Positions 1 to 11,255 of a DNA stretch of 11,255 nt are shown here, piece by piece; the stretch's first letter is position 1; every line of letters starts with the position of its first letter. Both the position numbers and the translations under genes were made by a program. This DNA is from a virus. Taxonomy: Duplodnaviria > Heunggongvirae > Uroviricota > Caudoviricetes. The notes below the pieces were generated by a model. That model did not search any database, was not told the origin of the DNA, and saw only the letters and a program-made list of their open reading frames with translations. The DNA is taken from the IMG/VR virus record IMGVR_UViG_2541047875_000011, positions 1-11,255 of that record. One strand, written 5' to 3'.

Positions 1-2208
1 CGTTACGGTCGTAACGTCACGAAGATGGATGCCTTTGGCTGTACCAGTCGGGGGCAGGCACACCGCGCCGGGCTGTGGCTGATTAAAACGGAGCTGCTGG
101 AAACGCAGACCGTGGACTTCAGCGTGGGTGCAGAAGGGCTTCGCCATGTACCGGGCGATGTCATTGAAATCTGCGATGATGACTATGCGGGGATCAGCAT
201 CGGCGGGCGCGTGCTGGCGGTGAACAGCCAGGCGCGGACACTGACGCTCGACCGTGAAATCACGCTGCCATCCTCCGGCACCACGCTGATAAGCCTGGTT
301 GACGGAAATGGCAATCCGGTCAGCGTGGAGGTCCAGTCCGTCACCGACGGCGTGAAGGTGAAAGTTAGCCGTGTTCCTGACGGCGTTGCCGGATACAGCG
401 TGTGGGGGCTGAAGCTGCCGACGCTGCGCCAGCGCCTGTTCCGCTGCGTGAGTATCCGTGAGAACGACGACGGCACGTATGCCATCACTGCCGTGCAGCA
501 TGTACCGGAAAAAGAAGCCATCGTGGATAACGGGGCGCACTTTGACGGCGACCAGAGCGGCACGGTGAATGGTGTCACGCCGCCAGCGGTGCAGCACCTG
601 ACCGCCGAAGTCACCGCAGACAGCGGGGAATATCAGGTGCTGGCGCGCTGGGACACGCCGAAGGTGGTGAAGGGCGTGAGCTTCCTGCTCCGTCTGACCG
701 TAACAGCGGATGACGGCAGTGAGCGGCTGGTCAGCACGGCCCGGACGACGGAAACCACATACCGATTCACGCAACTGGCGCTGGGGAACTACAGGCTGAC
801 AGTCCGGGCGGTAAATGCGTGGGGGCAGCAGGGCGATCCGGCGTCGGTATCGTTCCGGATTGCCGCACCGGCAGCACCGTCGAGGATTGAGCTGACGCCG
901 GGCTATTTTCAGATAACCGCCACGCCGCATCTTGCCGTTTATGACCCGACGGTACAGTTTGAGTTCTGGTTCTCGGAAAAGCGGATTACCGATATCAGGC
1001 AGGTTGAAACCACAGCCCGCTATCTTGGTACGGCGCTGTACTGGATAGCCGCCAGTATCAATATCAAACCGGGCCATGATTATTACTTTTATATCCGCAG
1101 TGTGAACACCGTTGGCAAATCGGCATTCGTGGAGGCTGTTGGTCAGCCGAGTGATGATCCATCCGGCTATCTGGATTTTTTCAAAGGAGAGATAGGGAAA
1201 ACCCATCTGGCTCAGGAGCTGTGGACGCAGATTGATAACAGTCAGCTTGCGCCTGACCTGGCTGAAATCAGGACGTCCATTACGGGTGTCAGCAATGAAA
1301 TCACGCAGACTGTCAATAAGACACTGGAAGACCAGAGTGCAGCGATCCAGCAGATACAGAAGGTTCAGGTTGATACCAGTAATGACCTGAACAGCATGTG
1401 GGCTGTGAAGCTGCAACAGATGAAGGACGGACGCCTTTATATCGCGGGTATTGGTGCCGGTATTGGGAACACCCCCGACGGCATGCAGAGTCAGGTGCTG
1501 CTGGCGGCAGACAGGATTGCGATGATTAATCCTGCAAATGGCAACACAAAGCCGATGTTTGTGGGGCAGGGCGATCAGATATTCATGAACGACGTGTTCC
1601 TGAAATATCTGACGGCTCCCACCATTACCAGTGGTGGTAATCCTCCGGCATTTTCCCTGACACCGGACGGGCGGCTGACGGCGAAAAATGCGGATATCAG
1701 CGGTAACGTGAACGCGAACTCCGGGACGCTCAACAATGTCACGATTAATCAGAACTGCCGGATTCTGGGAAAACTGTCAGCCAATCAGATTGAAGGCGAT
1801 CTCGTTAAAACAGTGGGCAAAGCTTTCCCGCGGGACTCCCGTGCACCGGAGCGGTGGCCATCAGGGACCATTACCGTCAGGATTTATGACGATCAGCCGT
1901 TTGACCGGCAGATTGTTATTCCGGCGGTGGCTTTCCGCGGTGCCAGACATGAGCGGGAGAATAGCGATACTTATTCGTCATGCCGTCTGATAGTGAAGAA
2001 AAACGGTGCTGAAATTTATAACCGAACGGCTCTGGATAATACGCTGATTTACACGGGTGTTATTGATATGCCTGCAGGCAGTGGCGTAATGACACTGGAG
2101 TTTTCTGTATCAGCATGGTGGGTAAATGGCTGGTATCCCACAGCGAGTATCAGCGATTTGCTGGTTGTTGTGATGAAGAAATCCACTGCAGGCATCACGA
2201 TTAGCTGA
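1..2208 (+). CDS. J: Tail tip / host specificity protein J, C-terminal ~735 codons; 5' end lies upstream of the window
   Basis: Frame 1 is open from base 1 (the track's Met at 25 is internal) to TGA at 2206-2208. Fibronectin-III-like segments (e.g. [22 protein letters not shown]) and a C-terminal region typical of lambda gpJ. Followed by a terminator, lom and stf in the lambda gene order. Confidence 0.88.
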
Positions 2209-2227
2209 ATTTTATAACCCAGATACG

Positions 2228-2251
2228 GGCGCCAGAAATGGCGCCTTTTTT
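2228..2251 (+). terminator. Rho-independent terminator downstream of J
   Basis: Perfect 6-bp stem GGCGCC (2228-2233) / GGCGCC (2240-2245), loop AGAAAT, followed by TTTTTT (2246-2251). Confidence 0.8.
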
Positions 2252-2275
2252 ATTACAGAAAAGCGAGAGGTAATT

Positions 2276-2875
2276 ATGCGTAAAGTTTGTGCCGCCATTT
2301 TGTCCGCTGCCATCTGTCTGGTCGTATCCGGTGCGCCTGCATGGGCGTCTGAGCAGCAGGCCACACTGAGTGCAGGGTATCTTCATGCCCGGACGAACGC
2401 TCCCGGCAGCGATAATCTGAACGGGATTAACGTGAAATACCGTTATGAGTTTACGGACACGCTGGGGCTGATTACGTCCTTCAGTTATGCCAGTGCCGAA
2501 GATGAGCGAAAAACGCACTACAGCGATACCCGCTGGCATGAAGATTCCGTGCGTAACCGCTGGTTCAGCGTGATGGCGGGGCCGTCTGTGCGCGTGAATG
2601 AATGGTTCAGCGCGTATGCGATGGCGGGTATGGCTTACAGCCGGGTGTCGACTTTTTCCGGGGATTATCTCCGCGTAGCTGACAACACGGGGAAAACGCA
2701 CGATGTGCTGACCGGAAGTGCTGACGGTCGCCACAGCAACACGTCTCTGGCGTGGGGCGCTGGCGTGCAGTTTAACCCGACCGAATCCGTGGCCATTGAT
2801 GTCGCTTATGAAGGTTCCGGCAGTGGCGACTGGCGTACTGACGGTTTCATCGTGGGTGTTGGTTATAAATTCTGA
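2276..2875 (+). CDS. lom: Lom outer-membrane protein (Ail/Lom family 8-strand beta-barrel); lysogen-expressed moron
   Basis: 199-aa ORF with signal peptide MRKVCAAILSAAICLVVSGAPAWA and C-terminal ...DGFIVGVGYKF. Near-identical along most of its length to lambda Lom as I recall it. SD GAGAGG lies 7 nt upstream of ATG 2276. Confidence 0.93.
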   Translation: MRKVCAAILSAAICLVVSGAPAWASEQQATLSAGYLHARTNAPGSDNLNGINVKYRYEFTDTLGLITSFSYASAEDERKTHYSDTRWHEDSVRNRWFSVMAGPSVRVNEWFSAYAMAGMAYSRVSTFSGDYLRVADNTGKTHDVLTGSADGRHSNTSLAWGAGVQFNPTESVAIDVAYEGSGSGDWRTDGFIVGVGYKF

Positions 2876-2896
2876 TTGTTAACACAGCTTTACGAC

Positions 2897-2924
2897 AGCC
2901 CGCCGGTTCAGGCGGGCTTTTTTG
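2897..2924 (+). terminator. Rho-independent terminator downstream of lom
   Basis: Stem AGCCCGCC (2897-2904) / GGCGGGCT (2911-2918), loop GGTTCA, followed by TTTTTT (2919-2924). Confidence 0.8.
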
Positions 2925-2934
2925 TGGGGTGAAT

Positions 2935-5289
2935 ATGGCAGTAAAGATTTCAGGTGTACTGAAAGATGGTGCAGGTAAGCCGGTACAAAACTGCACTATT
3001 CAACTGAAAGCCAGACGTAACAGCACCACGGTGGTGGTGAACACGGTGGCCTCAGAAAATCCGGATGAAGCAGGTCGTTACAGCATGGATGTTGAGTACG
3101 GTCAGTACAGCGTCAGTCTGTTGGTGGAGGGGTTCCCGCCGTCACATGCCGGGACCATCACCGTCTATGAAGATTCCCGACCCGGTACGCTGAATGATTT
3201 TCTCGGTGCCATGACGGAGGATGATGCCCGTCCGGAGGCACTGCGGCGTTTTGAACTGATGGTGGAAGAAGCGGCACGTAACGCTGAAGCCGCCTCTAAG
3301 AGCGCAGCGGCGGCAAAGAAATCCGAAACTGCAGCGGCATCATCGAAGAACGCGGCGAAAACCTCAGAAACGAATGCAGCTAATAGTGCACAGGCGGCAG
3401 CGACCTCACAGACTGCATCAGCAAACTCCGCGACAGCAGCCAAAAAATCAGAAACCAACGCGAAAAACAGCGAGACAGCCGCAAAGACGAGTGAAACTAA
3501 CGCAAAGTCCAGCCAGACGGCAGCGAAGACCAGCGAAACGAATGCCAAAGCCAGTGAAACTGCGGCGAAAAGCAGTCAGGATGCAGCAGCCGAAAGCGAG
3601 AGTGCTGCAGCCGGTTCTGCGACTTCAGCAGCTGGATCAGCAACTGCTGCGGCTAACAGCCAGAAAGCCGCGAAGACGAGCGAAACTAACGCAAAGTCCA
3701 GCCAGACGGCAGCGAAGACCAGCGAAACGAATGCCAAAGCCAGCGAAACTGCGGCGAAAAACAGTCAGGATGCAGCAGCCCAAAGCGAGAGTGCCGCAGC
3801 TGGTTCTGCAACAGCGGCAGCTAATAGCCAAAAAGCTGCAAAAACCAGTGAAACTAACGCAAAGACGAGTGAAACAAAAGCAGCAGCCAGCGAGACAGAA
3901 GCAACGTCAGCCGCAACAAGAGCAGAGAATGCAGCCCGGATTGCAGAAGATGCCGCTGATCCTGCTTCTGTCCCTCCGCTTCCTGATATCTGGCTACCCT
4001 TGAATGATTCTCTGGAAGCGATAACAGGGTATGCCCCGGGCTATAAAACAATAACCATCGGCAGTGATGAAATAACAATGCCTGTTAATGGCATATGCCA
4101 ATTTAGCCGGGCTTCATCTGCAACGTATATTGATAAGTCCGGGCATATTACCGTGGCAGGGAATAACGTTCCTCGTTTTGAAAAATATGGTTTGCTGATA
4201 GAGAATCAGCGAACAAACATGTTCGTAAATAGTTTTAATCCTGATGCCTGGAATAAAAGCGGTGGTATATCTGTAACATCATCAACAGATGAATTTGAGT
4301 TTAAATATGGACGTTTCACGGTAGGAAGCGATATAGCAGGAACGACAACAGGGCGAAATATATGCACAGTTGCTGGTAACAAAGGCATAGATGTGACTGG
4401 CGATGATCAGTACAGTAAAGGTCCGTATGTTACCGCGTCGTTCAGGGTAAGAAGTGATCTCAATGTTCGCGCACGTATCCGTTTTGAACGGTATAACTCG
4501 GAAGGATACACCTTCCTTTGCGACGCCTATTTGTCATTACAGACCCATGAACTACAAATTACTGGTGGCAATGCCCAGCTATTAACAGCAAACTTTGAAA
4601 TCGATCCAGGTAGTGGATGGATATATTTTCAGGCAACACTGAAATGTCTGCCAGAATGGGGAATGGTTGGTACGCAGCTGCAAATTGCAGCCGACAGAGC
4701 AGTGGGGGCTTTTGCAACAGGTGACTGGATAGAAGTAACCACCCCGCAATTCGAGTATGGTGCCTGTGCAACTTCCTTTATCATAACGACAACAGAGCCA
4801 GCGACTCGTGCATCAGATTTATGTAAATTTCCGCTGATGAAAAATATGTATACCATGCCTTTTACGTTCATGGTGGAAGTCCATAAAAACTGGTTTATTT
4901 CTCATAATGCTGCACCGCGTGTCATTGATTCAGAAAATCACCAGTCCGGAGGCCCATTTATTATGGGGTTTGGTTCTTCTGGAACTATCAGTCAGGATGG
5001 TTATTCGTATTGCGATATAGGCGGGGCTAACCGGCGTGTATATGAGTCATGCGGAGTAAGAGATCTCGTTATGGGATTCAGGGTTAAGGCTGACGGCATG
5101 ACATGCTCATTTGCAAATAAGAATATAAGCACTGAAACCAAAACAGTATGGAAATATATTCGTGAAGCAGCCGTGATTCGTATCGGGGGGCAAACGACGA
5201 CAGGATTACGACACCTTAATGGTCATATAAAAAACCTCCGTTTCTGGAACAGAGCATTGTCAGATACGCAGATTAAGGAATACGTATAA
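2935..5289 (+). CDS. stf: Side tail fibre protein, mosaic: lambda Stf-like N-terminal anchor, Ala/Ser/Thr/Lys repeat shaft, and a divergent low-GC C-terminal module ending in a LamG/ConA-like motif
   Basis: The track ORF starts at GTG 2929, but ATG 2935 gives MAVKISGVLKDGAGKPVQNCTIQLKA, matching the lambda/Rac Stf N-terminus, with SD GGGGTG upstream. The middle has KTSETNAKSSQTAAK-type repeats as in StfR. After ~3955 the sequence is unrelated and AT-richer, ending ...LNGHIKNLRFWNRALSDTQIKEYV, which resembles the last strand of LamG-type jelly-roll domains. Stop TAA at 5287-5289. Confidence 0.85.
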   Translation: MAVKISGVLKDGAGKPVQNCTIQLKARRNSTTVVVNTVASENPDEAGRYSMDVEYGQYSVSLLVEGFPPSHAGTITVYEDSRPGTLNDFLGAMTEDDARPEALRRFELMVEEAARNAEAASKSAAAAKKSETAAASSKNAAKTSETNAANSAQAAATSQTASANSATAAKKSETNAKNSETAAKTSETNAKSSQTAAKTSETNAKASETAAKSSQDAAAESESAAAGSATSAAGSATAAANSQKAAKTSETNAKSSQTAAKTSETNAKASETAAKNSQDAAAQSESAAAGSATAAANSQKAAKTSETNAKTSETKAAASETEATSAATRAENAARIAEDAADPASVPPLPDIWLPLNDSLEAITGYAPGYKTITIGSDEITMPVNGICQFSRASSATYIDKSGHITVAGNNVPRFEKYGLLIENQRTNMFVNSFNPDAWNKSGGISVTSSTDEFEFKYGRFTVGSDIAGTTTGRNICTVAGNKGIDVTGDDQYSKGPYVTASFRVRSDLNVRARIRFERYNSEGYTFLCDAYLSLQTHELQITGGNAQLLTANFEIDPGSGWIYFQATLKCLPEWGMVGTQLQIAADRAVGAFATGDWIEVTTPQFEYGACATSFIITTTEPATRASDLCKFPLMKNMYTMPFTFMVEVHKNWFISHNAAPRVIDSENHQSGGPFIMGFGSSGTISQDGYSYCDIGGANRRVYESCGVRDLVMGFRVKADGMTCSFANKNISTETKTVWKYIREAAVIRIGGQTTTGLRHLNGHIKNLRFWNRALSDTQIKEYV
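3478..3865 (+). repeat. Tandem direct repeat (~189 bp and ~168 bp units, about 2 copies plus degenerate shorter units) inside the stf shaft region
   Basis: The string GAAACTAACGCAAAGTCCAGCCAGACGGCAGCGAAGACCAGCGAAACGAATGCCAAAGCCAG occurs near 3493 and again near 3682 with few mismatches; copy 2 lacks a 21-nt segment. Degenerate 15-18-nt units (AAxACxAGxGAAAC) extend over about 3290-3900. Confidence 0.8.
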
Positions 5290-5558
5290 TGCGGGATATA
5301 ACATTACGATTCGATAACAGAGAACAGTTTAACGCAATTGTATATGACAGTGGCCTGTTCAGTCTTGAAGAAGAAAATGGGATTCTTGTTGATGTTATTG
5401 GCGGCATTATTGATTACGAGGAGCCAGAAAACGAAAGATGTACAGGCATTGATCGCGGTGGTTTTTTCGTAAACATGAGGATTGTTGATGGCAGTAAAAA
5501 CATATCTTCTTTAATGCCTTTCATTACGACAGATCAGCATGTAAGGACATGGGCTTAA
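5289..5558 (+). CDS. Small acidic hypothetical protein (89 aa), translationally coupled to stf; possible fibre-associated chaperone or accessory protein
   Basis: ATG 5289-5291 overlaps the stf stop as TAATG. SD-like AAGGAA at 5275-5280. Low-GC and acidic (many D/E). Function is inferred from position only. Confidence 0.5.
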   Translation: MRDITLRFDNREQFNAIVYDSGLFSLEEENGILVDVIGGIIDYEEPENERCTGIDRGGFFVNMRIVDGSKNISSLMPFITTDQHVRTWA

Positions 5559-5684
5559 TGGAGCTTGCTTGTTCAGGTAGCCAGAGAATCAGACGACAGA
5601 ATAACAGCACTGGAAGAAGAAAACGCAGAATTAAGACAAAGATTATCTGCAATTGAGGCGGCGCTTGCGTCTGAATAATATTAA

Positions 5685-5707
5685 GGGGCCGAGCGCCCCG
5701 TTTTATT
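5685..5707 (+). terminator. Candidate rho-independent terminator
   Basis: Stem GGGGC (5685-5689) / GCCCC (5695-5699), loop CGAGC, then GTTTTATT. Confidence 0.55.
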
Positions 5708-5720
5708 GGGTAGGATGAAA

Positions 5721-6014
5721 ATGGATATAACACCTTTCCTTCATGCACTTTGTGCTGTGGCTGCGCAGGTACTGATTGGCCTTTTTACCGGAAACTGGGT
5801 TTACGGTGCGATAGCTGGTTGTACGTTCTTCATTGCGCGGGAACACACCCAGGCAGAATATCGCTGGATTGAAATGTTCGGGCATGGCAAGCGAATGAAT
5901 ATGCCGTGGTGGGGCGGTTTTGATCCGCGTGCTTGGGATGTGGCAAGCCTGATGGATTTTGCTGTGCCGGTGGTGGCGTGTCTGCTGGTCTGGCTGTTGG
6001 TTAATCGTGGGTGA
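5721..6014 (+). CDS. Hypothetical small membrane protein (~97 aa, two predicted transmembrane helices); moron-like
   Basis: ATG 5721 with AGGA 5 nt upstream (the track extends it to TTG 5706). Two hydrophobic stretches, FLHALCAVAAQVLIGLFTGNWVYGAIAGCTFFIA and SLMDFAVPVVACLLVWLLV. Preceded by a terminator and a possible sigma70 promoter (TTGAGG 5653-5658, 17-bp spacer, TAATAT 5676-5681). Confidence 0.55.
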   Translation: MDITPFLHALCAVAAQVLIGLFTGNWVYGAIAGCTFFIAREHTQAEYRWIEMFGHGKRMNMPWWGGFDPRAWDVASLMDFAVPVVACLLVWLLVNRG

Positions 6015-6024
6015 AAAAAGGTGA

Positions 6025-6146
6025 GCTGTATATGCAACGGAGGAAGAAACCCCGTTGCTGGCGGCATGGAAGAAGTATCGGGTGCTGCTCAACCGAACTA
6101 TACATCAGTAGCTCCGGACATTGAGTGGCCTGTACAACCGGAATAA
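6025..6146 (+). pseudogene. tfa: Remnant of the 3' end of a tail fibre assembly gene (tfa), frameshifted; N-terminal ~150 codons absent
   Basis: Frame 1 (6025-6111) reads AVYATEEETPLLAAWKKYRVLLNRTIHQ*, matching the conserved lambda Tfa C-terminal motif ...EETSLLEAWKKYRVLLNRVD. Frame 3 (6093-6146) then reads PNYTSVAPDIEWPVQPE*, matching Tfa ...TSTAPDIEWPAVPVME*. A 1-nt frame change lies near 6096-6099. No upstream tfa reading frame exists. Confidence 0.65.
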
Positions 6147-6168
6147 ATATCAGGAGGAGTAATTAATC

Positions 6169-7304
6169 GTGTCGACTCTGATTTCCGGCGTATTAAAAGA
6201 TGGTGCAGGTATACCGCTGGCTGCCAGATTATCCTGAAATCCCGTGTAAACACCTCAGATGTGGTGATGTCTGTTGTTGCGCATATTGTAACCGGGCAAA
6301 ACGGGGAATATGCGTTTGAGGCCCGGACGGGGAAGTACAGCGTTTATCTGAAGACTGACTGGCGTAATGAGTTTCAGGTTGGTGTTATTTCTGTTTATGA
6401 GGACTCACAACCGGGCACACTGAACGACTTCCTGATAGCAGTGAGTGATGCTGATTTGAAGCCGGACGTTCTGCGGCGGTTCGATGAGCTGGCGAGGCGT
6501 GTCCATGAAGACGCGAACAGCGCAGAACAGTTTGCCGGAGATGCCCGTCGTGCTGTGGATGAACTGGGCGGTAAGGTTCAGGACGATATTCGTGACCGTA
6601 CACCGGACCGTCTGGCTCTGCCCGGTGCTTACGGCTTCGGCGGAATATTCAGCCGCTCGGAAGCTCTGTCGTTTCAGGGGGTATCTGATTTTGGTGCGTG
6701 GCTACAGAAAGCCACGCCGGGGCGTTATCCGGTCACTGTTGCGGATTCTTCTGCATTGCTGTTGGGCACCACGAAATTTAACGGCAACATTGATGTGCTG
6801 TGGTCACCCTTTGATAACGACGGGTCGGACACAGCGCACAAATTCAAAACGCTGTTGTGTTACAACGAGCCACGTGCCGGAGAGCACGGGCTACACCTGC
6901 TCCAGTACTGGTACGAGGGCGACAACCTGCGGGTTGCGGGCAGTATGATAGTCTGCGACGCTCCGTCGCTGGCGACACTGCTGTCAGCAACAGCGGGAGC
7001 GGACCCGTCAGGGTTCTACCGTTATCCGGCGGTGGGTTCCCTGTTGCTGGCAGCGTACCACGGGGCATCTGCCGGTGCTGGCGGGGTGAGTATTGCAACA
7101 GGCGACGTTGTTCCGGGCTCCTGTCTGGGGCCGGTGAGTATTCCGTGCGCGGTGAACGAAGGCGGCACAACTCCGTCGCCGCTGCGGGCGTTTGTTGGTG
7201 GTGCCGGACAGTACAATTTCCCCGGACGTTACCAGGCGTTATCCGGTGCAAATAATGTCCGTGGAAACAATGGGTTTATCTGTCTGTTTGTGCGCGTTGA
7301 GTAG
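6169..7304 (+). pseudogene. Second side tail fibre gene with a frameshift in the N-terminal anchor region; likely decayed, or expressed from an internal start
   Basis: SD AGGAGG (6152-6157). A GTG at 6169 opens frame 1, giving VSTLISGVLKDGAGIPLA and then a stop at 6235-6237; this parallels Stf MAVKISGVLKDGAGKPV. Frame 3 continues ...CQIILKSRVNTSDVV... (parallel to CTIQLKARRNSTTVV) through to TAG at 7302-7304. It also contains a shared VYEDSQPGTLNDFL motif. The frame change is near 6219-6225, with no homopolymer or slippery heptamer. Confidence 0.6.
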
Positions 7305-7311
7305 GTGAGAA

Positions 7312-7905
7312 ATGAACGCAGTAAAAGATATTCGCAATCCGGTGCATCTCGGAAACGGCGCGGTTGACTGTGAGGTGCTGTTTGAGGGGCGCAGCGAGTA
7401 CGTTGTTTATACGGCTGCGCCGGGCGACGCAGCCCCGACAGGTCAGCGTATCTGGCAGGAACTACAGAGCGGCAAATGGGGCGAAATTGCCCCGTTCACG
7501 GCCACGCCGGAACTGATAGCGGCGGCGAAGGATGCAAAACGTCAGGAAATTGAGGTGTGGCGTACCGAACAGGAAGCGCAGTCGTTCACGTTTGAGTGGA
7601 ACGGTCGAACCTGGAACGCGGGGCCGTCCTCACTGGCCCGGCTCACGCCTGCGATTACGGCGGCGGAATACGCCGGCGAGCAGGCTGTTACCTGGAGCGA
7701 TACAACCAACGAGCCGGTAAACCTGACAGTGCAGGAACTGAAATCGCTGGCCGTCGCACTGGCTCAGGCACTCTCTGAGCGGAACAACGCGATTTATCGT
7801 CGCCAGCGGGAGATGAAGGATACGTTAAACACCCTGGAGAATCTGGCAGAGGTGCAGGCGTTTAAGGTTGGAGAACAATCTATATTGGGGGTAAGCCGTA
7901 TTTAG
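7312..7905 (+). CDS. Hypothetical protein (197 aa) immediately downstream of the second fibre gene; possible fibre assembly or chaperone-like protein, family not confidently recognised
   Basis: ATG 7312 with SD GGTGAG 4-5 nt upstream. Its C-terminus lacks the Tfa LL.EAW..YRVLLNRVD motif, so it is not a classical Tfa. The assignment is positional. Confidence 0.45.
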
Positions 7906-8209
7906 CTCTTGCGCGGTTACACGCCTCATTGACGACGCCGTTCTCGCCAGACATGGCGAATTCTCTGCATGTGGATGATCGATTTTCATATATCGTGCAG
8001 CAGGCATTTTTGCCCGGAGTTCCAGCAAGGGCAACACATCTGGGGTTTTTCTGGTTTGTACCGATCATGCATCGGTGAAAAGGCGATACTTGTTCAGTAA
8101 GTCTGGCGGGAATGGTGCCGCCGGCATCGTCGGCTTCGGCCCAGTAAAAAGAGACGCGGAAAAATGCACAACAGGCGCCACACGTCATGCATGGATTCAG
8201 ATTGCTCAT
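7880..8209 (-). CDS. YkgJ-family Cys-cluster protein (CxxCxxCC putative zinc/iron-chelating domain), 109 aa
   Basis: N-terminus [21 protein letters not shown] contains C-x2-C-x2-CC, plus further C-terminal cysteines. Its 3' end overlaps the convergent ORF 7312-7905 by 26 bp. Confidence 0.65.
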
Positions 8210-8241
8210 AATTCACCAGTACAGCTATAAATCATAAAGAA

Positions 8242-8278
8242 AACAGCGGTACGTCGTATGAAAGAACTTACCGCTGTT
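8242..8278 (-). terminator. Candidate stem-loop / terminator downstream of the dinI-like gene on the minus strand
   Basis: 10-bp inverted repeat AACAGCGGTA (8242-8251) / TACCGCTGTT (8269-8278) with a 17-nt loop. On the minus strand it is followed by TTCTTTAT. An outer inverted repeat TTCACCAG (8212-8219) / CTGGTGAA (8281-8288) flanks it. Confidence 0.3.
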
Positions 8279-8345
8279 GGCTGGTGAACTTTTCGATAGT
8301 GCGAGTATTGAATGATTTCCAGCCGTTACCGATTTTACTCGTTAA

Positions 8346-8594
8346 TTAGCGAACAAACCACTCGTCAGCAGACTCCCAGGTATCTTTCAGCGTCTCCTGA
8401 ACAAAAGTTTTTGCAGAATCTTTATCGGCGGTGCGAGTAACTGAAAGGCCATCGTTGCTGGTGGCTTTTATGATCACTTCTACATCGTCATAACGCTTAC
8501 TGATGCGTCGGGTTAATTCTTCCTTTAACGCATCCACAGCACCGTTTGGCATTTTAGTCATTTTTTCTTTGGCTATGCAGATCTCAATACGCAT
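8346..8594 (-). CDS. DinI-like protein (DinI family, SOS-induced RecA modulator homologue), 82 aa
   Basis: [31 protein letters not shown]...[11 protein letters not shown] resembles E. coli DinI (MRIEVTIAK ... ETWESADDWF). SD GAGGGA upstream; tandem LexA boxes in the promoter region. Confidence 0.8.
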
Positions 8595-8607
8595 AAAAGT
8601 CCCTCTA

Positions 8608-8627
8608 TACTGTGTTTGTATACAGTA
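8608..8627. promoter_or_regulatory. LexA (SOS) box 1 upstream of the dinI-like gene
   Basis: TACTGTGTTTGTATACAGTA is a perfect match to the TACTGT-N8-ACAGTA consensus, 14 bp upstream of the dinI-like start codon. Confidence 0.8.
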
Positions 8628-8635
8628 TTATTTTT

Positions 8636-8655
8636 AACTGTATGGATAAACAGTG
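8636..8655. promoter_or_regulatory. LexA (SOS) box 2, abutting the integrase stop codon
   Basis: AACTGTATGGATAAACAGTG contains CTGT-N8-ACAG, 8 bp from box 1 and directly adjacent to the integrase stop at 8656-8658. Confidence 0.65.
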
Positions 8656-9753
8656 TCAAGAGGTCTTATTTCTGCTCCTTTGGAGCTCTTCAAAACGATT
8701 ATGTAAAGATTTCGGATACAGTTCAGTATATACCTGCCATAGCACGTTTAATGAACGATGCCCTGTGACCTGGGCGACTTCCTCAATACTAAAACCAGCC
8801 TCAAATAAGCGACTTGCCCCTTCTCTACGCAAATCATGGTATCGCAGATCCTTAATACCTAATTTGCTTCTTACCCTCTGAAATCCCGCAGTAACAGAAG
8901 TGCTGTTATATGGAAAAATGAATTCCGATTTTTTGGGCTGTCGTTGGACGATATCCCAGGCTTCCCCAAGCAAGGCTACTTTCATGTGGTTGCCTTCCTT
9001 TTTGCGTGGATCTTTCCTGTCTCTTACGAGTATAGATTTTTGTTCCTGGTCGAGATCTTCCCATCGTAACCGGCATACTTCTCCGATCCGCATACAGGAC
9101 CACACAGAAAATTTGAGGATATCAACGAACGGAATTTTTGAGCATTTATGAGTAGATCGTTGTTGAAGGCCTTCAATGAGCATGTCCAGTTCATCAGATG
9201 CTGGTCTACGATTACGACGGTTTGATTTACCAATCAAACCAAGTTTAAGTAGATATGGGCGAGCGCTTTTCGCCGGGTTTGATGTGTAATTAATTCCGTA
9301 TACAGGTTTGGCCGCATCCAGAACACTGCCAAGATAACTAACATCGTGGCTGACTGTTGCTGGACCTGCACCAGCGTTGTTTCTTAGCCTGCAATGTTCA
9401 ATTACGTCATTTTCTGTCAGTTCAGATAGTTTGATCGCGGAGATGTCACTATCCATAAGCAGTTCCAGCACATATCTTTTAGTACGGCCTGCTTTACCTC
9501 CGGCATTTGGGTCATTTAAATATTTGTGTAGTAAGTCACGGACTGTAAGTCCGTCAACTGCATTTGATGATGGAATGCCATATAGATCTAATTCCATCAC
9601 TTTCTGTGTTCCCCATGTTTTGGCATGAGCATGTTTAGGGAATGTTTTGCTTTCCCTGTAAGTGATAACACCTTTTTCTTTGATAATCACATTACAGCGA
9701 TAGCGTGGTGTGCCATCGGATTTTAGTCGTTTCTCTATGTTATAGTACGCCAT
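8656..9753 (-). CDS. int: Prophage tyrosine integrase (site-specific recombinase, dusA-targeting type by context)
   Basis: 365-aa ORF with a C-terminal catalytic region carrying H-x-x-R (YHDLRREGASRL) and the tyrosine nucleophile (LWQVYTELY). SD GAGG 7 nt upstream on the minus strand. Divergent from dusA and only 88 bp from it. Confidence 0.9.
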   Translation of the reverse strand: MAYYNIEKRLKSDGTPRYRCNVIIKEKGVITYRESKTFPKHAHAKTWGTQKVMELDLYGIPSSNAVDGLTVRDLLHKYLNDPNAGGKAGRTKRYVLELLMDSDISAIKLSELTENDVIEHCRLRNNAGAGPATVSHDVSYLGSVLDAAKPVYGINYTSNPAKSARPYLLKLGLIGKSNRRNRRPASDELDMLIEGLQQRSTHKCSKIPFVDILKFSVWSCMRIGEVCRLRWEDLDQEQKSILVRDRKDPRKKEGNHMKVALLGEAWDIVQRQPKKSEFIFPYNSTSVTAGFQRVRSKLGIKDLRYHDLRREGASRLFEAGFSIEEVAQVTGHRSLNVLWQVYTELYPKSLHNRFEELQRSRNKTS

Positions 9754-9772
9754 TACACGACCTCGTTATTTC

Positions 9773-9808
9773 GGGTTCCCATAAAACGTGGGAACCTGTG
9801 CGGGAACC
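9773..9808. promoter_or_regulatory. Repeat cluster in the int-dusA intergenic region: candidate integrase arm-type sites or operator
   Basis: Inverted repeat GGTTCCCA (9774-9781) / TGGGAACC (9789-9796) with a 7-nt loop, plus a further direct copy of GGGAACC at 9802-9808. Confidence 0.4.
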
Positions 9809-9841
9809 TAACGCGAGAAAAATAGCCTGAAATGTTCAAAA

Positions 9842-10879
9842 ATGCACGATAATCATGAAACACAAAAAATTAATCAAACCAGCGTGATGCCTGAAAAAAC
9901 TGGTGTTTACTGGAATTCTCGGTTTAGCATTGCTCCTATGCTTGACTGGACGGACAGACATTGCCGTTATTTCTTGCGTCTGCTTTCCCGCAATACGTTG
10001 TTGTATACCGAAATGGTGACCACAGGGGCGATTATTCACGGTAAAGGTGATTACCTGGCGTACAGTGAAGAAGAACATCCGGTAGCGTTGCAACTCGGGG
10101 GTAGCGATCCGGCGGCGCTGGCACAGTGTGCGAAGCTGGCAGAAGCGCGTGGATATGATGAGATCAACCTGAATGTCGGCTGCCCGTCTGACCGGGTGCA
10201 GAACGGCATGTTTGGTGCGTGTCTGATGGGTAATGCGCAGCTGGTTGCCGACTGCGTGAAAGCGATGCGCGATGTGGTGTCGATTCCGGTGACGGTGAAA
10301 ACGCGTATTGGCATCGATGATCAGGACAGCTATGAATTTCTCTGCGATTTCATCAACACCGTTTCCGGCAAAGGTGAGTGTGAGATGTTCATCATCCACG
10401 CACGTAAAGCCTGGCTTTCTGGGTTAAGTCCGAAAGAAAACCGTGAGATCCCGCCTCTCGATTATCCGCGTGTGTATCAACTGAAGCGTGACTTTCCGCA
10501 TCTGACGATGTCGATTAACGGTGGTATCAAGTCGCTGGAAGAAGCTAAAGCGCATTTGCAACATATGGATGGCGTGATGGTCGGGCGCGAGGCGTATCAG
10601 AATCCGGGTATTCTGGCGGCGGTAGACCGAGAGATTTTTGGTTCCTCGGATACCGATGCCGATCCGGTGGCGGTAGTGCGCGCCATGTATCCGTACATTG
10701 AGCGTGAACTCAGCCAGGGTACGTATCTCGGCCATATTACCCGGCATATGCTGGGCTTGTTCCAGGGTATTCCTGGCGCGCGGCAGTGGCGGCGTTATTT
10801 AAGTGAAAATGCCCATAAAGCGGGTGCAGACATTAATGTGCTGGAACACGCGCTCAAACTGGTGGCGGATAAGCGTTAA
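9842..10879 (+). CDS. dusA: tRNA-dihydrouridine(20/20a) synthase DusA
   Basis: 345-aa ORF with the Dus family TIM-barrel signature ([33 protein letters not shown], catalytic Cys region). It matches E. coli DusA essentially along its full length as I recall it. An alternative start at ATG 9887 (MPEKTG...) would give 330 aa. Confidence 0.93.
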
Positions 10880-10944
10880 CTTTTCACCAAAAAGTAGTCA
10901 AATTCACCACGCCCTGCGCACCGTCGCGGGGCGTTTTGCTGTTA

Positions 10945-10976
10945 AATCAATAGATTATTTTTGGCATGATTCTTGT
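10945..10976 (+). promoter_or_regulatory. sigma54 (RpoN) promoter of pspG with adjacent IHF site
   Basis: TGGCAT-N5-TTGTA (10962-10977) fits the -24 GG / -12 element spacing. AATCAATAGATTA (10945-10957) fits the IHF consensus WATCAANNNNTTR. A direct repeat TTCACCA at 10883-10889 and 10903-10909 is a possible PspF enhancer site. Confidence 0.6.
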
Positions 10977-11012
10977 AATGCCAGCAAGAGATTTCATATT
11001 TGGGAGAGCATC

Positions 11013-11255
11013 ATGCTGGAACTACTTTTTGTAATTGGCTTTTTTGTCATGCTGATGGTCACCGGTGTTTCGTTGCTGGGTATTATCGCCGCGCTGATTG
11101 TGGCGACGGCCTTTATGTTCCTCGGCGGTATGCTGGCATTGATGATTAAGTTGCTGCCGTGGCTGCTGTTGGCGGTTGCGGTGGTGTGGGTGATCAGGGC
11201 GATTAAAGCACCAAAAGTGCCGAAATATCAGCGTTATGACCGCTGGCGTTACTAA
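11013..11255 (+). CDS. pspG: Phage shock protein G
   Basis: 80-aa hydrophobic protein MLELLFVIGFFVMLMVTGVSLLGIIAALIV...KYQRYDRWRY from ATG 11013 to TAA 11253-11255, with SD GGGAGAG 7 nt upstream. The track ORF from 10803 is an upstream in-frame extension through the promoter. Confidence 0.9.
   Translation: MLELLFVIGFFVMLMVTGVSLLGIIAALIVATAFMFLGGMLALMIKLLPWLLLAVAVVWVIRAIKAPKVPKYQRYDRWRY

Follow-up and report, generated by a model that had tools for sequence, protein, structure and literature searches.

Lambda-type side tail fiber of an E. coli prophage with an exchanged, predicted lectin-fold tip and a linked small partner gene

What has taken the place of the usual tip on the side tail fiber of a lambdoid prophage, and which gene accompanies the replacement? 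This question is raised by a stretch of 11,255 nt from IMG/VR (record IMGVR_UViG_2541047875_000011, positions 1 to 11,255), here called the window, which is the right end of a lambdoid E. coli prophage inserted beside dusA. Its side tail fiber gene, stf (2935-5289), is an uninterrupted open reading frame (ORF) of 786 codons from a GTG at 2929 or 784 codons from the ATG at 2935. An initial annotation had described the product as a mosaic, with a lambda-type anchor and shaft fused to a foreign C-terminal module. In the reading that we favor, stf encodes a chimeric side tail fiber with a mobile receptor-recognition module that would bind polysaccharide, and the small gene behind it, orf89, would supply a folding or assembly factor. 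We give this reading a probability of roughly two in three.

The front part of stf is that of a lambda-type fiber. Residues 1-131 match PF08400 (E 3.7e-70, 234.6 bits), the anchor of lambda-type Stf proteins, and the gene lies downstream of J and lom in the lambdoid tail operon. From 2929 to 3822, it has 89-93% nucleotide identity to many lambda-like phages, and beyond about 3822 ordinary lambda-like stf genes no longer match it at the DNA level. Tandem repeats with periods of 42, 189, and 21 nt fill 3451-3904 of the shaft. The assignment of the first ~340 codons to the lambda/Rac Stf pattern therefore stands, as does the abrupt change of protein and base composition that had been placed at about 3955-4000. 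Guanine-cytosine (GC) content drops from 0.546 in 2935-3954 to 0.439 in 3955-5286, and GC content at third codon positions (GC3) drops from 0.485 to 0.372. The values for J are 0.560 and 0.646, and those for orf89 are 0.393 and 0.348. A two-segment likelihood scan put the break within stf at 4042, with a near-equal plateau at 3984-4045 and a log-likelihood ratio of 15.6, compared to a maximum of 8.1 among 500 block shuffles. In alignments, the conserved module begins at PLPDIW (nt 3976), whatever precedes it in the homologues. The low-GC tract extends past stf through orf89 to about 5700, and so the acquired block is larger than 3955-5289. The whole protein is collinear with phrog_1419 (793 positions), and this collinearity makes the chimera an established family rather than a one-off. 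The C-terminal 444 amino acids match only phrog_1419/5939 and NF048003. Pfam scans of stf gave no match to Peptidase_S74 (PF13884), and stf does not have a gp37-like tip followed by a Caudo_TAP or DUF4376 Tfa gene.

The module is found on many other tails. Its family has 1,991 cluster representatives at E<=1e-3, and copies of the C-terminal 437 amino acids, with 28-53% identity, are preceded by at least five unrelated N-terminal anchors. Besides the lambda Stf type (PF08400), these include a P2-type collar-fiber N-terminus (PF12571 and PF03406) in a P2-like prophage (L003), the T5 Ltf/LtfA N-terminus after LtfC in phages KS_S14 and L6jm, and a distinct N-terminus after J in other siphoprophages. 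A module gene with its orf89 partner also lies within a Mu-like baseplate cluster of Atlantibacter, between DNA-circulation and hub genes (L009 4001-5838), and another pair follows Baseplate_J and Wedge1 genes (L012 1987-3785). The presence of one module on lambda Stf, P2-type, T5 Ltf-type, Mu-like, and other anchors identifies it as a shuffled cassette, which agrees with the mosaic, horizontally acquired origin proposed at the outset. In a protein from a Logan assembly (P0001), a copy of the module with 99% identity is fused to a lambda capsid E domain (PF03864); this fusion is most likely an assembly chimera. Many database copies of stf are truncated "partial" proteins that end in the repeats.

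Conservation along the module is uneven. Median identity to the window is 52-56% in the conserved segments 8-100, 263-292, and 406-444 and 18-19% in the hypervariable segments 101-262 and 293-405. This is expected of a fixed scaffold with variable binding faces and is the typical pattern of a receptor binder. Purifying selection on the module is strong within the allele, with a ratio of nonsynonymous to synonymous substitution rates (dN/dS) of 0.05-0.07 against PhiR55_1 and PhiR47_1. The allele of the module, together with orf89, is present at >=95% identity in 141 of 5,426 complete E. coli genomes. The stf allele is also carried by the phages PhiR55_1, PhiR11_1, and PhiR47_1, whose recorded hosts are E. 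coli C, K-12, or ECOR13.

Sequence and structure evidence agree in predicting that the module is a tandem of two concanavalin A (ConA)-like beta-sandwich domains. Domain 1 scores 47.9 bits against a cut-off of 36 with the NCBIfam family NF048003, "phage head spike fiber domain" (stf residues 421-626). Searched against the PDB as a single sequence, it found the head spike fiber Rcc01080 of the Rhodobacter capsulatus gene transfer agent (RcGTA) with an E-value of 0.0015. A family profile built from 19 distant relatives matched the same protein (6tb9_F3) at 4.1e-39, the baseplate proteins E217 gp45 and Pa193 gp46 at about 1e-17, and the tail fiber gp17 (9occ) at 2e-13. The two baseplate-cluster positions described above (L009 and L012) fit the homology to E217 gp45 and Pa193 gp46. 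As a structural template, 6tb9 was rejected, because only residues 2-10 of Rcc01080 are resolved and it gives no solved shared domain.

For domain 2, the initial annotation had named a LamG/ConA-like terminus on the strength of a C-terminal peptide, which is indeed present in the stf translation. The last 49 residues match Laminin_G_3 (PF13385) at E 9.2e-5 with 23.1 bits, below the gathering score of 27.6. This match was seen with the isolated C-terminal 179 amino acids and was missed when the whole protein was scanned against Pfam at E<=0.1. Among 65 family members, 40 match PF13385 at E<=1e-3 (best 4.9e-11), and many relatives carry the NCBI name "LamG-like jellyroll fold domain-containing protein". 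The module profile also weakly aligned pentraxins at positions 293-422.

The fold was predicted with AlphaFold2 (AF2). A shallow alignment of 13 sequences gave a mean predicted local distance difference test (pLDDT) score of 52 and an uninterpretable C-terminal domain, and therefore a deeper alignment of 65 sequences, including distant relatives, was used. The resulting model has a pLDDT of 86.4 and a predicted TM-score (pTM) of 0.84 and shows a two-sheet beta-jelly-roll fold. In the junction segment, column entropy is low and model confidence is moderate (pLDDT 61-78). The structural neighbors of the model, with their scores, were the arabinan-binding domain 4 of AbnA (20.0), Pa193 gp46 (18.1), the lectin-like Hc domains of clostridial neurotoxins (15-18), the sialic-acid binders of carbohydrate-binding module (CBM) family 40 (14-15), pentraxins (13), and laminin LG and neurexin LNS domains (11-12). 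The laminin LG4-5 pair was aligned over about 400 columns by Foldseek. These neighbors were divided between the two domains by aligned length and hidden Markov model coordinates, so each assignment to domain 1 or 2 is indirect. A search of BFVD superposed the entire module, with both domains, on annotated tail fibers of the phages "rolling", EdH4, and NBEco002 (TMq 0.86-0.92) and also matched it to many proteins of uncultured phages labeled "Concanavalin A-like lectin/glucanases superfamily". The earlier proposal of a lectin-like tip thus holds for the ConA-like fold and fails for the single domain, since there are two.

How might such a fiber work? The lambda-type anchor and repeat shaft would fix stf to the tail tip, and the distal 437 residues, with their two predicted beta-sandwiches, would form the mobile receptor-recognition module. 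The most likely ligand of the module is a surface polysaccharide (O-antigen, capsule, or lipopolysaccharide core), bound through the hypervariable sandwich faces. Binding would be reversible and made by each of the three chains at the fiber tip, if the module is arranged on a trimeric shaft as we suppose, and this first contact would precede the engagement of J with its receptor. Carbohydrate binding, which the initial annotation had raised as possible, is plausible because domain 1 is homologous to a capsule-binding fiber and because the structural neighbors are lectins and CBMs. The RcGTA head spike fiber binds the capsular polysaccharide of R. capsulatus, and the fluorescently tagged protein binds capsulated cells (PMC10218006).

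The module would travel between phages with its translationally coupled, acidic partner. orf89 has 89 codons, begins at the A of the stf stop codon (overlap TAATG), and encodes a protein with an isoelectric point of 4.4. It belongs to phrog_1361 ("unknown function"). Neither the single sequence nor a seven-member alignment matched Pfam, NCBIfam, or the PDB, and it does not fall into the Tfa, Caudo_TAP, or DUF4376 families of known chaperones. Homologues share 24-38% identity and the invariant residues M1, D3, L6, D35, G38, G58, N62, R64, R86, W88, and A89. A homologue directly follows the module gene in 10 of 10 contexts sampled by hand; an exception in arrangement is Chromobacterium (L008 4001-7607), with two tandem module genes (679 and 416 amino acids) before a single orf89 homologue. 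In the reverse test, three orf89 homologues picked by searching the family, in which at least 382 members are known and every one is annotated "hypothetical", were each preceded by a full-module protein. The linkage was then counted in the 80 best module-encoding loci of IMG/VR, which represent 53 distinct module sequences in 15 clusters at 80% identity. All 80 have a small gene downstream of the module, and its start overlaps the stop in 76. Such tight linkage and apparent translational coupling across unrelated tails argue that orf89 works with the module. The simplest reading, by analogy with the fiber and chaperone cassettes of Alteromonas phages (PMC10579305), is that it most likely replaces Tfa as a dedicated folding or assembly factor. 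The earlier suggestion that this fiber does without the classical Tfa fits the gene order, and the inducible phages PhiR55_1 and PhiR47_1 carry this stf without any tfa. The divergence of orf89 correlated with that of the C-terminal motif (rho 0.70), the N segment (0.64), and the hypervariable middle (0.21) of the module. We rejected these values as evidence of co-evolution since they are confounded by physical linkage and shared ancestry.

Several points weigh against the favored reading. Glycan binding is a prediction for the stf module, as it would be for any close relative. The LamG score of stf itself is under the Pfam cut-off, the module model is a monomer, and the RcGTA homologue is a single-copy capsid fiber and no trimeric tail fiber. 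At the sequence level, orf89 has no detectable similarity to any chaperone, and its substitutions are too few for a usable dN/dS. Lambda-like phages are able to plate without Stf, so carriage by viable phages is no proof of a functional fiber. One rival reading is that stf is a non-functional relic of a decaying prophage, with no current role. The debris around stf (a deleted short fiber, a tfa remnant, and a frameshifted second stf) would fit a relic, and RefSeq splits stf of strain A24 into two pseudogene pieces. We consider a relic very unlikely, since neither the window nor A24 has a break in the 786-codon ORF, the dN/dS is low, and the same allele is kept in the three phages and 141 complete genomes named above. 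The two RefSeq pieces in A24 (L001) span 2935-3310 and 4207-5289, although the reading frame is unbroken there; the pseudogene call is probably an annotation artifact of the repeat shaft or the chimeric architecture. Another possible explanation is that the receptor recognized by the module is a protein, for instance an outer-membrane porin (OmpC in the case of lambda Stf), instead of a carbohydrate. The top structural neighbors are carbohydrate-binding domains (AbnA domain 4, CBM40, and sialidase lectin domains), and the sole characterized homologue binds capsular polysaccharide (PMC10218006), which makes a protein receptor rather unlikely. With the same beta-jelly-roll fold, the module could also act enzymatically, breaking down capsule or O-antigen as a glycan hydrolase or lyase, and this we regard as highly improbable.

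A different role is suggested by the gene that follows orf89 in most loci, since the module and orf89 could be a docking platform and not (only) a receptor binder. Among the 73 IMG/VR loci with sequence beyond orf89, 61 have a next gene that starts with M-x-T-x-T-[VI]-I-P. This N-terminus is common to lambda-like (PhiR55_1, PhiR47_1) and T5-like (KS_S14, L6jm) phages, and the genes of this type that we examined in both groups encode short fibers with a Peptidase_S74 intramolecular chaperone domain. Next to a 100-amino-acid subtype of orf89 (L007, L011), the following gene has another type of N-terminus, MAMRKDSITL.... When aligned, these second-fiber proteins have little in common beyond their N-termini. 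Lambda-like and T5-like tails share only the module and orf89; a conserved short-fiber N-terminus therefore needs a conserved docking partner, which suggests that it docks on one of these two. The module, orf89, or both might then mainly serve to dock a second short fiber onto the side tail fiber, as LtfA carries LtfB in T5-like DT57C, and branched fibers have precedent (PMC4728585, PMC10713586). In the window, the branch would be lost and the fiber would be a stump with reduced or changed function. We think it unlikely that docking is the main role. orf89 and the module persist without such a second fiber at a prophage end (L005), in the Mu-like baseplate cluster (L009), beside a different fiber (L012), and in 12 IMG/VR loci, and the hypervariable faces and the capsule binding of the RcGTA homologue point to receptor recognition. 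The docking and receptor-binding roles can coexist. A tentative extension, doubtful at present, is that the ConA-tandem module and the orf89 family form a portable fiber-on-fiber cassette, with orf89 as a new class of adaptor or assembly factor that docks the M-x-T-x-T-V-I-P short fiber. If this is true, lambdoid, T5-like, P2-like, and Mu-like phages build branched, dual-specificity fibers from one interchangeable kit.

The window itself has lost that short fiber. A clean deletion (at 5559-5720 of the window) has removed about 0.92 kb that is present in PhiR47_1 (L093 4127-5048). The deleted segment encodes a 294-amino-acid S74-type short fiber (MVTKTVIPDDIKTLK...), and the intact homologue in PhiR55_1 matches PF13884. 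RefSeq labels what is left "tail fiber domain-containing protein, missing N-terminus". Homologues of orf97, the next small gene, stand directly after the short fiber or after orf89 in many prophages and IMG/VR loci, and Pfam and NCBIfam scans gave no family match for it. The initial annotation had taken the downstream tfa to be only a remnant. A remnant does exist, as debris of another cassette, and an intact Tfa-like gene lies further on, where it serves a second, frameshifted stf. The N-terminus of this second stf, VSTLISGVLKDGAGIPLA, is read from a GTG at 6169 and continues in another frame. Its tip (phrog_2636) differs from that of the first stf, and the RefSeq coding sequence covers only 6267-7304. 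The positions of all features are given in Table 1.

Table 1. Features of the stf region and neighboring genes in the window
Feature	Position	Strand	Basis
J domains	25-2208		Pfam/annotation
Ail/Lom (lom)	2276-2875		Pfam/annotation
stf N-terminal anchor domain, lambda/Rac Stf type	2935..3327	+	PF08400 phage_tail_N
Ala/Ser/Thr-rich repeat shaft	3328..3975	+	Tandem repeats, translation; GC 0.547
Conserved junction segment of portable module (PLPDIWLPLNDSL...)	3976..4089	+	First column block common to all anchors
Module domain 1, predicted GTA-head-spike-fiber-like ConA-type beta-sandwich, hypervariable face at module residues 101-262	4090..4830	+	
Module domain 2, predicted LamG/pentraxin-like jelly roll, ends in ...GHIKNLRFWNRALSDTQIKEYV motif	4831..5286	+	
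orf89, acidic 10-kDa partner gene of module	5289..5558	+	phrog_1361; linkage to module gene
Remnant (last 37 codons) of second, Peptidase_S74-type short fiber that normally follows orf89	5565..5678	+	RefSeq annotation
Terminator-like GC hairpin, then T run	about 5685..5709	+	Consensus scan only; no evidence of function
orf97, small hydrophobic 97-aa protein (MDITPFLHALCAVAAQ...), end of cassette	5721..6014	+	Homologues (MDI[ST]P...)
Frameshifted C-terminal remnant of classical Tfa gene	6034..6146	+	RefSeq pseudogene; ...PLLAAWKKYRVLLNR / ...APDIEWPVQPE* in two frames
Second stf, frameshifted near 6222-6226; ORF from 6261/6267 remains	6169..7304	+	PF08400 positions 34-131, phrog_2636 tip
Tfa-like assembly gene (DUF4376) of second stf	7312..7905	+	PF14301 E 1.5e-16; phrog_1141

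Eight complete genomes, including that of strain A24, match the full length of the window at 99.2-99.5% identity. The gene order is J, lom, stf, orf89, gene debris, the second stf, and the DUF4376 Tfa-like gene, followed by ykgJ, dinI, an integrase gene on the minus strand, and then dusA and pspG. The tyrosine integrase gene (within 8656-10879) is directly upstream of dusA in divergent orientation, which is consistent with a dusA-targeting prophage. The same dinI-int arrangement ends the genomes of PhiR55_1 and PhiR47_1. J may be mosaic itself, as its GC content changes from ~0.64 to ~0.49 near 900-1000 (region ~900-1100).

Modular swapping of tail-fiber tips is textbook knowledge, and stf is a well-supported but fairly ordinary case of receptor-binding parts being exchanged between phages. 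Deposited proteins that are identical or nearly so are already annotated as "side tail fiber protein", "phage head spike fiber domain-containing protein", or "LamG-like jellyroll fold domain-containing protein", and so only the partner gene orf89 and the possible branching kit go beyond current annotation. Our literature search on the module in lambdoid Stf, LamG tail fibers, the PHROG and NCBIfam names, or the orf89 family found nothing relevant. In lambdoid phages, and in delivery particles derived from lambda, the side tail fibers determine the first-contact host range. The tip described here is compact, has a predicted lectin fold, and apparently does not depend on Tfa. With its clear junction (PLPDVW) and one small partner gene, it would be a practical template for retargeting such particles, because it has already been grafted in nature onto at least five kinds of tail. 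The homology also links E. coli prophage fibers with a gene transfer agent and its capsule-binding head spike. Whether the orf89 family acts as chaperone or adaptor is directly testable in PhiR55_1, PhiR11_1, and PhiR47_1.

The tip of lambda Stf is gp37-like and depends on Tfa. The window stf resembles the lambda/Rac Stf and Tfa system in its place after J and lom, its PF08400 anchor, and its Ala/Ser/Thr-rich shaft, and it differs in its predicted two-domain ConA-like tip and in having orf89, not tfa, as the next gene. Compared to the Laminin_G_3/ConA-like superfamily (PF13385; pentraxins, LG/LNS domains, CBM40, and BoNT Hc-N), stf scores below the Pfam cut-off, and in this phage fiber two such domains are predicted to stand in tandem. 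RcGTA Rcc01080 (GhsB; PDB 6tb9/6tba chain F3; NF048003) shares the homologous domain 1. The RcGTA head spike fiber is flexible, with one chain per spike, and its N-terminal (I/L)-G repeat peptide sits in a pentameric base on the capsid (PMC7296036). The stf domain, in contrast, ends a tail fiber and is followed by the LamG-like domain; the N-terminus of stf is a tail-fiber anchor, so the (I/L)-G peptide and capsid location that mark GhsB as a whole protein are absent. E217 gp45 and Pa193 gp46 (PDB 8env, 9b45) are baseplate wedge or triplex components of PB1-like myoviruses, not fiber tips, and do not match the LamG-like second domain. In the Alteromonas phages A5 and V22, a tail fiber and its small cognate chaperone gene are shared as a unit across morphologically unrelated phages (PMC10579305). 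The chaperone role was shown experimentally there, whereas for orf89 we infer it, and the two cassettes have no sequence relationship. In T5-like DT57C, docking of a second fiber on the first, and hence branched fibers, has been inferred (PMC4728585). LtfA and LtfB of DT57C and DT571-2 both end in S74 chaperone domains, with no orf89-like gene or ConA-like tandem described there. In the phages related to the window, the S74 domain sits in a separate short fiber and not in stf. In the T5-like phages KS_S14 and L6jm, the gene after LtfC joins a T5 Ltf/LtfA-type N-terminus to the module, and orf89 and an S74-type fiber come next.

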